DNA of 64,000 nucleotides from a virus (Duplodnaviria > Caudoviricetes), in the IMG/VR virus record IMGVR_UViG_3300025073_000989. One strand, given 5' to 3'. The position numbers and the translations under genes are program-made. The stretch's first letter is position 1; every line of letters starts with the position of its first letter. The notes beneath the pieces are model-generated. The model saw only the letters and a program-made list of their open reading frames with translations. It did no database searches and had not been told where the DNA came from. Shown piece after piece: positions 4,015 through 7,780 of the stretch.

Positions 4015-4329
4015 CTAAATTAAAATAAAATTATCTACTATAATCTCTGTCCAATATTTTTTGTCAGATCCTTTACAGTACCTACACTGACCGTCATAAG
4101 AGCTTTCTTCTATATGTCCATGTATCCTAACATAACTATCCTTGGGTAATACGCTTAAAGCTTCCGCCAAATTACCCCAAGCACCAATTTTAATATACTG
4201 AAACAAACCACAATCATCTGGGGACGGTATAGCTAATTTAGCTTTAAACATATAGTTATCATTGTCTAACTCTTTAAAACTAGGATATGTAATCTTGCCC
4301 ATTAAAATAACAAAGTTTTCTCCCCGCAT
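4015..4329 (-). CDS. ssb: Single-stranded DNA-binding protein (OB fold only)
   Basis: NFVILMGKI...AWGNLAE...VRIHGHI...TEIIVDNF matches the bacterial SSB OB pattern; no acidic tail. Confidence 0.75.
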   Translation of the reverse strand: MRGENFVILMGKITYPSFKELDNDNYMFKAKLAIPSPDDCGLFQYIKIGAWGNLAEALSVLPKDSYVRIHGHIEESSYDGQCRYCKGSDKKYWTEIIVDNFILI

Positions 4330-5375
4330 TAAAAATATCCCTCTAAATATGACATTATTTTATCTTTGGATAGGTCTGAAGGATCCATACCACTTTCAGT
4401 TATAAATACTGGAATCAACGGTTTAATATTACCATTTAGTTCATTAAAAGACGCAATAGTCCCTTCTACTCCGGCCTTGTCACCATCAAAAAACAAAACT
4501 ACGCCTTTAGGGGCATTTGCATATAGAAGAATCCTCTGGTACTCTGTTACAAAAGATCCCATAATAGCCACTACGTTTCTTATACCATACTCATACAAGC
4601 GCCATACACTCTTAAAACCTTCAACAACAATAATAGGTTTGTTTGTACAAAACTCCCTAGCCTTGTCTAAGTTATACAAAGTTCTATCTTTATCAAAACC
4701 CGGCGTTAGTTTATATTTAAAACTTGAGTCTTTTATGTCGTTATTATCTCTAGTATCCCTTAAACTATAAGCGCGCAGTTTACCATGTTCGTCTCTTATA
4801 GGTATAATGTCTCTAATTATATTATTATAATCTTTATAGCCACCGGCAACTTCAAAGTAATCCAAAGTAGCTTCTTTAAACCCATCCTTTATAAACATTA
4901 AAGACCTAAAGGGCTTAAATTGGTTAAGCGAATCCTCATTTACTATAGGGGGCTTATTGTCTACTTTTTTAACAATTCTGAGAATGCGATCTGTCTCTCT
5001 ATTCATTTTAAATTTAGAAAACTCTTTACTAAAATCACCTATAGCACCAACTAAACCCTCTAGATAGTGAACAGCCGACATAAAATTAGTTTTATGAACA
5101 GCCATTATTAGGCCTATAACATCATAACTAAAAGATTCATGACATTTATTAGTAAAACAAATCCAGGTACCTGTTTCTTTATTAAACCTAAAAGCTGATT
5201 TATTATCACCACCGTGTATTATACAAGCACATCTAATTTCTTTATTAGAATCCCTTTCTATATCAAAACCAAGAGATACTAGAAGATAGTTATAGTCTAC
5301 TGCCAATTTTAAGCATTCTAGTTTATGCTTAAGTTCTAATCTAGCTTCACTATCAATAGAGTTGTTGATGCTCAT
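4329..5375 (-). CDS. dnaG: DnaG-type DNA primase; the current start codon lies inside the IS right end
   Basis: CHC2 zinc finger (CIIH...CFTNKC), TOPRIM motifs IVVEG and FFDGDKAG. Confidence 0.9.
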   Translation of the reverse strand: MSINNSIDSEARLELKHKLECLKLAVDYNYLLVSLGFDIERDSNKEIRCACIIHGGDNKSAFRFNKETGTWICFTNKCHESFSYDVIGLIMAVHKTNFMSAVHYLEGLVGAIGDFSKEFSKFKMNRETDRILRIVKKVDNKPPIVNEDSLNQFKPFRSLMFIKDGFKEATLDYFEVAGGYKDYNNIIRDIIPIRDEHGKLRAYSLRDTRDNNDIKDSSFKYKLTPGFDKDRTLYNLDKAREFCTNKPIIVVEGFKSVWRLYEYGIRNVVAIMGSFVTEYQRILLYANAPKGVVLFFDGDKAGVEGTIASFNELNGNIKPLIPVFITESGMDPSDLSKDKIMSYLEGYF

Positions 5376-5392
5376 CGGGCACCGCCCGACGA
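5372..5392 (-). repeat. IS right-end hairpin
   Basis: Minus strand TCGTCGGGC-GGT-GCCCGATGA, 9-bp stem with one G:T pair. Confidence 0.85.
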
Positions 5393-5836
5393 TTTCAGTT
5401 TACCTTCCTTCAAAGGTATCTGATTTAGGGGAACGTCAATATGCCCCACGGTCGAAACTCTGTCTTCGGCCGTTTGCTCATAAAGAAACCAAGCATTCGC
5501 GGATATATTAAAAGCCACGTTGGCATCTCTATGATCAAAGTGTCCACAAGAGCACTTGTAGTGCTTACCATTTGGTTTGTTGATGCTTCCACAGCGCGAG
5601 CAAACCTGTCTTGTATAAGCTGGATTTACAAACACTACTGGCACTCCAAGCAAAGTCGCCTTGTATTTGATGAAGGTTTCCAACTGATAAAAAGACCATT
5701 GAGATTTCTGAACATAGCTCTTGGCTTTACCTTTCTTGGAAATCTTTCCCAAATCCTCTAATACTATGGCGGAACGATGTAGTTTGGCGTAATCAACTAT
5801 GGTTTTGGAAACTTTATGGTTAATTGTAGTTTTCAC
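5372..5836 (-). pseudogene. tnpB: Internally deleted TnpB (154 aa from GTG at 5836; the ORF track extends it to 5872)
   Basis: AAGGAG SD 8 nt before GTG; retains IVLEDL (RuvC-II), WSFYQL, VNPAYT, CxxC zinc ribbon and HRDANVAFNI (RuvC-III); lacks WED/REC and RuvC-I. Confidence 0.85.
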
Positions 5837-5887
5837 TGGTGGTGCTCCTTTAGATGTTGTTAAAAAATACATACAGGGTCAAACTGG

Positions 5888-5928
5888 TTGAGACTTACCC
5901 CGAGCACCGCTCTGGGATTGTGTCTCAA
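5888..5928 (-). repeat. IS left-end hairpin
   Basis: Minus strand TTGAGAC-acaat-CCC-a-GAGC-GGT-GCTC-GGG-gtaa-GTCTCAA nested inverted repeat. Confidence 0.85.
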
Positions 5929-7319
5929 AAAAATTGTTCATCATAACTTGAGCTGCCTTCATTGTGAGCCACGCCATCTTTGAAATTAAATAATTGCCTA
6001 TCGGCCGGTACTTCCTTAATAAATAACATCTCCTTAAAAAAATTATAACCAATACCTGTATCTCCAGTACCTCCTCCCCTACGGCTATCTTTTATTACTA
6101 GCTTATACGGACCACACTTTCCGCCGTATGTCTCCAATACAGAAGTTTCCTGAGCCATCCAAAAAGACACTATATCGCCGTATCTAGCTATTCTATCGCT
6201 ATCTGCAATATCACCCTGCCTATTTAATTGGACGGCTGTAACAAATGGTATATTTAAATCACCAGACAGATCTTTAAGTCTAGTAGCAACATCCCCTAAA
6301 ATTTGATATTCTTTTCTTTGTGTATTAATACTTGTAGACTCTGGCTCTTTTATATAATCAAAAAAAGCTGCCTGAATATCTTCCTTAATTTTATATTTCT
6401 TATACAGGGCCGTAATCTTATCAAGCGAATATCCAGGCATGTATTCATGAAAAAACTTTTTACCCTCAAATATTTTTATTGCTTTAGTTATTTTAGTATA
6501 TGTAGCATCATCATAACCACCGTGCTTTATTATACGCTCTGGTATACCGGTTACCATAGAAATAAGACGGTCTCTCCACTCACTAAAAGTCATCTCAGTA
6601 TCAACATATAATAACGGTTTCTCTGAAACCAGCGCTATGTGTGCCGCCATATTGGTAATAAACGCACTTTTACCCATTTTCTTTCTTGCAGCTACTATAA
6701 AAAGAGTACCAGGAATTAAACCATCTATCTGTGTATCTAATATCGGGTAACCTGTAGAAATACCAGACATATCCTTATATTCTTTTCGTCTTTCTTCTAA
6801 ATAGTCAAGTAGTCCGTCACAGACATTTACTGGCTCTTTAATTGATTTAGCTTGTGTAGATAGGCTCATTATATCTGATTGAATCTGGCCTATAAATTGA
6901 CCACTGTCTTTAGACCCCCTACTTAGGTCTTCCAGTATCTCAATACTAGTATTGTTAATTTTTTTAAATAATTGATACTTAGTACTGGCCTCTAATATAT
7001 CATTAACATATCTATCAAAATTCCCTGGGTCTGAATCCATAAAGTTATATAGCAAATCAAGATACTTTGCATCTATCAGTTCTGTAGCTCCTAATGACTC
7101 TAACTGACGCTCAACCTCAAAAAACTCAAAAGATTTAATATCATACTTCTCATTAAGCATTTTAAGAACACCAAATAGTGTCGAATGACGTACATCCAGA
7201 AAATCCTGCTTATTAACCTTAGACACTAAAGTATAATAAAAATCTATATTATTTACTGCTTTGGATAAAACATACCTTTCAGCATATTCCTTACAAAAAT
7301 CTGAAACATTATACTGCAT
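5925..7319 (-). CDS. dnaB: Replicative DNA helicase, DnaB family
   Basis: Walker A AARKKMGKS, YVDTEM, FFDYI, AVQLNR, KDSRRG motifs; N-terminal DnaB domain. Confidence 0.92.
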   Translation of the reverse strand: MQYNVSDFCKEYAERYVLSKAVNNIDFYYTLVSKVNKQDFLDVRHSTLFGVLKMLNEKYDIKSFEFFEVERQLESLGATELIDAKYLDLLYNFMDSDPGNFDRYVNDILEASTKYQLFKKINNTSIEILEDLSRGSKDSGQFIGQIQSDIMSLSTQAKSIKEPVNVCDGLLDYLEERRKEYKDMSGISTGYPILDTQIDGLIPGTLFIVAARKKMGKSAFITNMAAHIALVSEKPLLYVDTEMTFSEWRDRLISMVTGIPERIIKHGGYDDATYTKITKAIKIFEGKKFFHEYMPGYSLDKITALYKKYKIKEDIQAAFFDYIKEPESTSINTQRKEYQILGDVATRLKDLSGDLNIPFVTAVQLNRQGDIADSDRIARYGDIVSFWMAQETSVLETYGGKCGPYKLVIKDSRRGGGTGDTGIGYNFFKEMLFIKEVPADRQLFNFKDGVAHNEGSSSYDEQFF

Positions 7320-7780
7320 TATCCCCTCCTCTCCATCCTAGTTTCCCATAATTCATTTTCTCTACGGGTAAGTTCTCTCTTAAAAGTAGCTATGTACTCC
7401 TGTATAGTTTTATCTATACCGTCTAACAGCATAAGTTCCATTTTTAATTCTTCTATTTTTTGCTCCTTTTCGTACAACTCTTTAGTATTTGATGTAATGT
7501 AAGCTACAGCATTACCTTTGGTTTTATATGTTTTCATTATATCTGAAGTAAGTAACTGAGACGTAGCTAGCTCCAATTCACGCTCTAGTTTAAATAGACC
7601 GGCTTTTGATTGGTTTTGCTGATATTTAAAGTAAATTAGGTACTGAGAAAGTGCCAGAGCGTATTGACTCAATTCGGAACCGTCAATAACATCTAATGTT
7701 CTAACATCCATTTCAAATACCTGCCTAATAAAATCGTAGTCTGGCTTAACTTCACTAAAAGATAATACACCTTTATCCAT
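7319..7780 (-). CDS. Hypothetical helical protein (possibly UvsY-like recombination mediator)
   Basis: 153 aa, coiled-coil character, near recA/dnaB; the UvsY idea rests on size and context only. Confidence 0.5.
   Translation of the reverse strand: MDKGVLSFSEVKPDYDFIRQVFEMDVRTLDVIDGSELSQYALALSQYLIYFKYQQNQSKAGLFKLERELELATSQLLTSDIMKTYKTKGNAVAYITSNTKELYEKEQKIEELKMELMLLDGIDKTIQEYIATFKRELTRRENELWETRMERRG

Follow-up and report, generated by a model that had tools for sequence, protein, structure and literature searches.

The replication genes of a jumbo phage (Duplodnaviria; Caudoviricetes) carry the remnant of an IS200/IS605-family insertion sequence (IS) exactly where the gene for its DnaB-type helicase gives way to that for its DnaG-type primase. 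The phage is IMG/VR record IMGVR_UViG_3300025073_000989, a genome of 268,764 bp (~269 kb) that is estimated to be complete, and 64,000 nucleotides of it were analyzed (hereafter the window). The left end of the remnant supplies the stop codon of dnaB and its right end supplies the start codon of dnaG. With a probability of roughly 0.8, we consider that an IS605-type element inserted at the pentanucleotide ATGAA within an overlap of the two genes, that its ends provided both translation signals, that an internal deletion followed, and that dnaG is now initiated by coupling to the truncated tnpB frame left inside the element. Insertion sequences are rare in phage genomes because nearly every base codes. 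All genes of the locus lie on the minus strand of the window, in the order helicase, remnant, primase and SSB, and the features on which the argument depends are as follows.

7319..5925, minus strand: dnaB-type replicative helicase, 464 aa, with Pfam DnaB_C (E 1e-31) and a DnaB N-terminal domain
5944..5937, minus strand: orphaned ancestral dnaG start, ATG ATG AA, of which the last five bases, ATGAA (5941..5937), are the probable insertion target and left cleavage site (CL)
5365..5936, minus strand: IS200/IS605-family remnant, 572 bp, its top strand being the minus strand of the window; non-autonomous, with a 928-bp internal deletion
5936..5925, minus strand: 3' end of dnaB, made of element-derived CAA TTT TTT (5936..5928) and the stop TGA (5927..5925)
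5888..5928, minus strand: left-end structure, with an outer stem TTGAGAC/GTCTCAA (5928..5922 / 5894..5888), the left guide (GL) CAAT (5920..5917) and an inner imperfect palindrome CCCAGAGC-GGT-GCTCGGGG (5916..5898)
5824..5875, plus strand: relic of the tnpA 3' end, last ~17 codons, aligning with positions 4290-4341 of contig L055 inside an opposite-strand Y1_Tnp open reading frame (ORF) of 143 aa
5872..5372, minus strand: truncated tnpB ORF, 166 aa, whose sole Pfam match is PF07282 (Cas12f1-like_TNB, the TnpB C-terminus with its zinc ribbon; E 3e-20)
5365..5500, minus strand: right end and omega-RNA-like 3' region, with the right guide (GR) AAAT at 5395..5392, a hairpin at 5391..5373 and the right cleavage site (CR) TCAA at 5368..5365
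5375..5365, minus strand: 5' end of dnaG, whose first 11 nt, ATGAGCATCAA, are element DNA and donate Met-Ser-Ile and two bases of Asn4
5375..4329, minus strand: dnaG-type primase, 348 aa, with Toprim domains
5353..5355, minus strand: inferred ancestral dnaB stop TGA, from the reconstruction that joins ATGAA to CAACTC; it now lies within dnaG codons 7-8

The sequence details in an earlier note on this DNA, which had been made from the letters alone, are all present. The last codons of dnaB read GAT GAA CAA TTT TTT TGA, and this TGA belongs to the 5' arm of the outer stem at the left end, in agreement with the note's claim that the left end of the element donates the helicase stop. The A of the dnaG ATG (5375..5373) is the final base of the right-end hairpin TCGGGC-GGT-GCCCGA and its TG lies just beyond; then comes AGCATCAA, and the terminal TCAA ends at 5365. 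The displaced ATG ATG at 5944/5941 opens a dead-end frame of 21 codons, MMNNFFETQSQSGARGKSQPV, that enters the element and stops there.

Copies of the element were collected by searching IMG/VR with the right-end hairpin and then filtering with BLAST; hairpin queries of 14-15 nt gave mostly chance matches in GC-rich phages, which were filtered by script. The same ends recur in more than 20 copies from other viral and metagenome contigs, so the structure in the window is not due to chance. Six copies are ~1.5 kb long (five of 1512 bp, one of 1509 bp) and mutually 83-95% identical, and the 1512-bp relatives encode a 143-aa Y1 transposase, TnpA (Y1_Tnp PF01797, E 1e-30), and a divergently oriented 384-aa TnpB. 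The window insert is ~80% identical at the nucleotide level to three copies (L055, L011 and L069) in two blocks that lie ~930 bp apart in these relatives, and it still has its two ends and the final 150 codons of tnpB. Judged on sequence, the element belongs to the IS200/IS605 family on every point that could be checked, the window copy being a non-autonomous member. All copies of the lineage seen so far come from phage and metagenome contigs. The left-end pattern had no match in 185,579 prokaryote genomes, and the 19-mer of the window's left hairpin had none in IMG/VR.

What remains of tnpB is a chimeric ORF. Residues 17-166 correspond to TnpB residues 235-384 (RuvC-II/III and zinc ribbon; 79% amino acid identity to the L055 protein), while the N-terminal 234 residues (WED, REC and RuvC-I) are gone. 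The antisense strand of the terminal tnpA codons furnishes its first 16 residues together with its Shine-Dalgarno sequence, AAAGGAG, and its possible starts, an ATG at 5872 (166 aa) and a GTG at 5836 behind the AAAGGAG (154 aa); gene callers picked either length on other contigs. Other contigs carry shorter forms too: deletion derivatives of 304 to 984 bp, copies with tnpB only (1160 and 1188 bp) and a solo right end, ~55 bp long. The 268.8-kb genome yielded no match to the Y1 transposase family (PF01797) and no second copy of the window's right end. An alignment of the copies further shows that GR changed from the GAAT of all other copies to AAAT in the window. Because TnpB is truncated, tnpA is absent from the genome and the right guide has changed, the window copy is most likely immobile and nuclease-dead, a state that fits a selfish element which became fixed and then decayed.

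Both ends carry subterminal imperfect palindromes, and terminal inverted repeats are lacking. The left end folds as DNA at -9.9 kcal/mol (z-score -2.7 against shuffles), and each of its two stems changes in a compensatory manner between copies: AGAGCC/GGCTCT against TGAGAC/GTCTCA in the outer one, and GAAC/GTTC against GAAG/CTTC against GAGC/GCTC in the inner one. The 9-bp right-end hairpin, folded as RNA, reaches -16.7 kcal/mol (z-score -3.2) and contains the AUG. For the 3' ~130 nt, nine close copies give a consensus fold of 45 pairs, 12 of them with compensatory changes, and the window keeps this fold. The region resembles an omega-RNA and matched no Rfam family, the same hairpins also serving TnpA on DNA, and the predicted guide of this omega-RNA-like fold would be the first dnaG codons past the right tip. 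An alignment across subfamilies of the 3' 220 nt found no common structure besides the right hairpin, whereas the close subfamily did share one.

The right boundary follows from the copies. Twenty of 21, including members of a different TnpB subfamily, end in ...TCGGGCGGTGCCCGATGAGCATCAA (quoted at other lengths as ...CCCGATGAGCATCAA and ...GCCCGATGAGCATCAA), with unrelated flanks beyond, and the 21st, on contig L124, ends in TCAT instead of TCAA. Since 20 copies share this end, the element ends at window position 5365 and the primase ATG is element DNA, as the earlier note had proposed. The ATG itself is conserved in every copy.

The left boundary took more evidence to place. Upstream of the left-end stems, the copies share a block (A)TGAAC-A-G/A followed by a short pyrimidine run, and 15 of 16 independent loci have (A)TGAA at a distance of 18-20 nt on the 5' side of the left hairpin foot. 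Flanks are otherwise unrelated among copies and show no target duplication. The variants of the left site, TGAG (twice) and TGAT, are compatible with wobble pairing (G-T for TGAG) or with later mutation. IS608 recognizes its cleavage sites through base pairing with guides, the four nucleotides 5' of each hairpin foot: GL AAAG with CL TTAC, 19 nt upstream of the hairpin, and GR GAAT with CR TCAA, 10 nt downstream of it, including the pairs A+16:T-3 and A+17:T-4 (PMC3201880, PMC5934647). The family described here has GR GAAT and CR TCAA as in IS608, and an invariant GL CAAT. With this guide, the IS608 scheme predicts TGAA as CL, which is the conserved core that we observe.

An independent check comes from contig L044, where the gene for a glycosyltransferase of 727 aa lies behind a 473-bp copy and its product now starts with MSIKIKGIKYVGP. 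The 120 best IS-free homologues begin M[E/K]IKGIKY[VI]GP, and excision after ATGAA gives MKIKGIKYVGP, the N-terminus of the homologues. No other cut does so; when it is moved 3 or 6 nt further to the right, the protein gains one or two residues that are absent from every homologue. The behavior of the HAD-like gene behind the solo right end on contig L067 is consistent with the same cut. As a frame test, only cuts 5, 8 or 11 nt after the A of the ATG keep the flank ATG in frame downstream at the five loci concerned (L011, L044, L071, L124 and the window). Given the pairing rule, the conserved ATGAA, the L044 protein and the frames, the left cut was probably made after ATGAA at window position 5937, so that the element spans 5936..5365 and the CAA TTT TTT TGA of dnaB is element DNA. 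The L044 gene (3065-5248) has a further peculiarity: homologues measure about 372 aa, and the extra ~350 aa, which follow ...FQW and start CYDDKTRVLTEDG, look like an intein with a homing-endonuclease core, so that this gene seems to carry two selfish elements.

A cut within the run of seven T residues, as the earlier note had it, is an unlikely alternative, although it survives better than the other rival explanations. The insertion would be the same, the empty site would be GATGAACAATTT followed by CAACTC (expected allele TATGATGAACAACTC), and the ancestral proteins would have been DnaG MMNNFNSID and DnaB ...YDEQFQLY. This junction regains an NFN motif that the two closest IS-free primases hold at the matching place, in M(K)NFNKED; its DnaB tail would equal that of the 60% relative in length; and its global alignment score to the P0002 primase, 173, ties with that of the ATGAA junction. 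Against it, the CAATTT that it assigns to the ancestral genes aligns with a CAGCCTT segment of every other copy, which marks it as element DNA; pairing with GL CAAT by the IS608 rule sets the cut after TGAA; a cut of this type does not restore the canonical glycosyltransferase N-terminus in L044; and it needs a gap of two residues, scoring 130 and 135 against P0003 and P0005 where the ATGAA junction scores 139 and 149. The reading frame that the earlier note deduced for the empty junction was right, and its left boundary was probably 6 nt off. The note also missed that the element derives by internal deletion from one with tnpA and tnpB, and that the AUG it donates is buried in a hairpin and overlaps the stop of the truncated tnpB. 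The T run itself (5928-5934) comprises 2-5 T in all other copies; it looks like a slippage expansion inside the element and sets the Phe-Phe-stop tail of DnaB. Three other boundaries were rejected. One upstream of the ATG would make the whole ATGAACAG block element DNA, but the copies show no conservation ahead of the ATG, and dnaG would have been left without a start. Cutting after TGAAC (6 nt) shifts the ancestral ATG into a frame other than that of dnaG and of the downstream ORFs of L011, L044 and L071. Cutting at the outer stem (12-13 nt) breaks the frame in L011, L044, L071 and L124 and does not recover the N-terminus expected for L044.

With the cut after ATGAA, the ancestral junction would read TATGATGAA joined directly to CAACTC. 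The ancestral DnaB would have ended ...SSSYDEQLY, 464 aa long as it is today and with Leu-Tyr where Phe-Phe now stands, and DnaG would have begun MMNNSID, or MNNSID from the second ATG, giving a gene overlap of 20 or 17 nt. These ends probably replace the YDEQFQLY and MMNNFNSID that the earlier note had reconstructed. This ATGAA reconstruction aligns without gaps to the 60% relative. IS-free relatives keep the gene order and have no insert, and their dnaB/dnaG overlaps, as gene-called, are the following.

L005: IS-free relative, DnaG identity 47%, dnaB/dnaG overlap 26 nt
P0003 contig: IS-free relative, DnaG identity 59%, dnaB/dnaG overlap 44 nt
L198 (P0002): IS-free relative, DnaG identity 60%, dnaB/dnaG overlap 41 nt, or 17 nt from an internal ATG

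These overlaps of 26-44 nt, at 47-60% DnaG identity, bear out the proposal that the element landed in an overlap of the two genes. The observations that might have spoken against it, an IS-free relative whose DnaG starts with MSI or a junction that does not overlap, were not encountered among them.

In the scenario that we favor, an element carrying tnpA and tnpB would have inserted by single-strand 'peel and paste' transposition immediately 3' of an ATGAA that formed the dnaG start and lay inside the last dnaB codons, within the 17-20 nt overlap. The cut fell close to both gene ends, three codons ahead of the dnaB stop and two to three past the dnaG start, so that both proteins were left nearly unchanged. 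The DnaB tail would have passed from ...DEQLY to ...DEQFF at a constant 464 aa, with TGA in the left-end stem as the new stop; DnaG would have passed from M(M)N-NSID to MSIN-NSID, as the right tip ATG AGC ATC AA mimics the displaced ATG AA in the same frame. A later 928-bp deletion would then have removed tnpA and two thirds of tnpB while the tnpB frame stayed open, and the element would have ended up fixed and immobile within the replication operon. Before this decay it may plausibly have spread between co-infecting phages by TnpB-guided homing. The sequences show the insertion, its two boundaries, the source of the start and stop codons, the deletion and the hairpin with its ATGA overlap, while the succession of events, coupling and homing are inferred. 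Samples that contain the phage include ENA ERZ27254751 and JGI 3300009031. The DnaG protein is identical on 22 contigs from several samples, 20 of which have the same gene neighborhood, and the insert DNA is 100% identical between the two of these contigs that were compared; an identical DnaG on 22 contigs means that the arrangement clearly works.

The dnaG frame is closed upstream by a TAA at 5402..5400, with no ATG, GTG or TTG between it and the donated ATG, and that AUG is paired within the GC-rich -16.7 kcal/mol hairpin and has no clear Shine-Dalgarno sequence before it. The stop codon of tnpB, TGA at 5374..5372, overlaps the dnaG start as ATGA, and this ATGA overlap occurs in every copy. 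A buried AUG without a clear Shine-Dalgarno sequence, an ATGA overlap and an open 154-codon tnpB frame make translational coupling by termination and reinitiation the simplest route, and it is likely the one by which dnaG is initiated: ribosomes that terminate on the truncated tnpB ORF, itself equipped with a Shine-Dalgarno sequence and GTG, would melt the hairpin and reinitiate on dnaG. Coupling fits with the 928-bp deletion having kept the tnpB frame open, and with the smallest remnant, on L067, which keeps a host Shine-Dalgarno sequence and ATGAA, a 14-codon leader and the ATGA ahead of a host gene. This remnant is the ~55-bp solo right end (L067, minus strand, about 392-480): the host contributes a strong Shine-Dalgarno sequence (AAAGGGGAG) and ATGAA, after which come the final ~50 nt of the element, and the result is a 14-codon leader ORF ending with ATGA at the start of the HAD-like gene.

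The open frame could also have been kept for its product, if the 154-166 aa TnpB fragment had been domesticated, perhaps into a small regulator or a protein that binds DNA. We regard this as improbable, slightly more so than a cut in the T run. It would account for a frame that is open with its own Shine-Dalgarno sequence and GTG, for RuvC-II/III and zinc-ribbon residues that are 79% conserved, and for an omega-RNA-like scaffold that keeps its pairs; yet the fragment lacks the 234 N-terminal residues (WED, REC, RuvC-I) that hold guide RNA and target, which excludes the known modes of TnpB and TldR, and its first 16 residues are antisense tnpA. Other remnants hold just a short leader ORF ending at the same ATGA, as on L067, which fits the view that any translated ORF will do. 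Least probable of these alternatives is that the right-end ATG is not a working start, with DnaG initiated from the next candidate, a TTG at codon 24, or made dispensable by the host primase. The paired AUG and the lack of a convincing Shine-Dalgarno sequence before 5375 would suit this reading, but a start at codon 24 would drop most of an N-terminal helix (FKxKLxYLKxxVD) conserved in all relatives, the 348-codon frame is intact and identical on the 22 contigs, and the same MSI(N/K) fusion heads long ORFs at eight other loci (L011, L025, L036, L044, L067, L071, L076 and L124).

Several points weigh against the insertion-and-coupling scenario or parts of it. No IS-free allele of the window phage was found: an IMG/VR pattern search with the earlier note's junction and with any ATGATGAA-N(0-10)-CAACTC gave no match, and the 90% cluster of the window DnaG has a single member. 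The window alone does not separate the junction after ATGAA from that in the T run, as the tied P0002 scores illustrate with relatives at 58-60%, and it is the evidence from the family that decides; the joined sequence is TATGATGAACAACTCTATTG for the former and GATGAACAATTTCAACTC for the latter. The argument for coupling is one of geometry only. Finally, the right-end ATG may not have been selected as such and could follow simply from the hairpin together with the tnpB TGA stop.

Across the family, the target is often a start codon. Among 13 independent loci with both ends known, the target ATG is the start of a long downstream ORF in five (L011, L044, L071, L124 and the window), three lie inside ORFs and five are intergenic or antisense; when loci with only a right end are included, 9 of 18 have a long ORF that starts at the right-end ATG. 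As a background, just 1 of 131 ATGAA sites in the 64-kb window is start-like under generous criteria. At this rate, 5 of 13 has a binomial probability of 3e-8, and the enrichment survives a several-fold higher background. The A before TGAA is also present at the three loci whose ATG is not a start, so ATGAA is probably the transposase's own target. The enrichment can stem from survivorship, only start hits being harmless in compact genomes. It is tentatively conceivable, at somewhat below even odds, that this IS605 lineage is adapted to live at start codons, with a target that includes ATG, a tip that re-creates ATG AA in frame and coupling to tnpB. If so, a hit at a start codon would cost the host gene just two extra residues (Ser-Ile), and its expression would be coupled to tnpB translation through the ATGA overlap.

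The MSI(N/K) N-terminus heads unrelated genes on phage contigs, namely a glycosyltransferase and P-loop kinase-like, HAD-like and RF-1-domain-like proteins, the labels being read from N-terminal motifs except for the glycosyltransferase. A homologue search with the ORF downstream of the L011 copy found itself only. On L124, an 867-bp copy (925-1805) lets the host start read through the left end into a truncated tnpB frame of 290 codons; its cleavage sites have shifted together, to TGAT on the left and TCAT on the right, and the downstream P-loop protein would revert to MIISLSGKKGTGKS. Contigs L055 and L202 are related and share an insertion locus, and in one of the two the flank ATG has become TTG; an orphaned start is thus free to drift.

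The gene after dnaG encodes an SSB, and the genome contains other tnpB sequence.

4329..4015, minus strand: SSB ORF, downstream of dnaG

The stop of dnaG and the start of ssb share the sequence TAATG (4326-4331), so the replication genes 3' of the insert are also tightly coupled. Outside the window there is a second, unrelated tnpB (L003 649-1884; G000:C1 about 267527-268764), full-length and open for at least 412 aa (PF07282, E 1e-16), which runs off the end of the record, and a weak third TNB match lies at G000:C1:264865-265005. The region 4300-7400 had no match in GenBank phages by megablast or blastn.

Compared with known systems, the family is closest in its ends to IS608 of Helicobacter pylori. 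Shared features are the subterminal imperfect palindromes, a CR TCAA 10 nt 3' of the right hairpin with the guide GAAT 5' of it, a CL that lies outside the element ~19 nt 5' of the left hairpin and is set by the 4 nt before the hairpin foot, a C as first element base and the lack of target duplication. It differs from IS608 in its target and left guide ((A)TGAA and CAAT versus TTAC and AAAG), in divergent tnpA and tnpB genes, as in IS605, in the extra outer stem around the left hairpin, in the in-frame ATG that overlaps the tnpB stop at the right end, and in having its copies in phage genomes. The resemblance to ISDra2 of Deinococcus radiodurans lies in a pentanucleotide target that would also act as the transposon-associated motif (TAM), and in a guide RNA scaffold encoded by the tnpB 3' end and the right end with a guide from the right flank, of which the structured 3' region with covariation is the putative counterpart here. 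In contrast, the TAM is TTGAT in ISDra2 and predicted to be ATGAA here, and the truncated window TnpB cannot be a nuclease. TldR, a nuclease-dead TnpB-like repressor whose near full-length fold binds guide RNA and DNA and whose RuvC is inactivated, does not describe the fragment either, which lacks residues 1-234 and keeps the RuvC-II/III motifs.

IStrons, in which a TnpB-bearing IS (IS200/IS605 or IS607) is combined with a group I intron, persist in coding genes by neutralizing their own insertion damage (PMC13565253). The window element is like the IStron CdISt1 in being a TnpB-bearing IS in a protein-coding gene whose insertion damage is neutralized, but IStrons repair by RNA splicing, and here the repair is by translation, with a new stop upstream and a new start downstream. 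An IStron or group I intron was rejected for the window itself: an Rfam scan of 4800-6500 gave only two weak unrelated matches (E about 0.6) and no group I intron at E<=1, and the space from the left end to the genes, before tnpB, is only about 70 nt. Free-standing homing endonuclease genes of the T4 seg/mob type are expected to move between co-infecting phages by cutting the empty allele and to decay after fixation (PMC13565253). They, too, are selfish nuclease genes wedged between essential phage genes; the differences are a predicted choice of target that is RNA-guided (TAM plus right flank) and not protein-based, and entry by Y1 transposition at a defined pentanucleotide, with homing that would be as suggested above.

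In the literature that we searched, ATGAA was not among the described targets, and two aspects appear to be new: a case, at the level of single bases, of both IS ends rebuilding translation signals in an overlap of essential genes, and the recurring replacement of phage gene starts by MSI(N/K). The locus provides a base-resolution example of how an IS can survive in the overlap of two replication genes: since the target ATG AA and the tip ATG AGC ATC AA are near-copies, the downstream gene keeps a start and the upstream gene loses just two residues. In practice, the MSI(N/K) signature can alert annotators to IS605 insertions that have gone unnoticed and to gene starts called at the wrong place. 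If the preference for start codons is adaptive, it would be the translational counterpart of the IStron splicing trick, a second route by which TnpB elements neutralize their own insertion, and it would explain how a transposon can reside inside essential genes of compact phage genomes. The family would then also offer a defined system, with ATGAA as TAM and the 5' end of a gene as guide, for RNA-guided homing between co-infecting phages.

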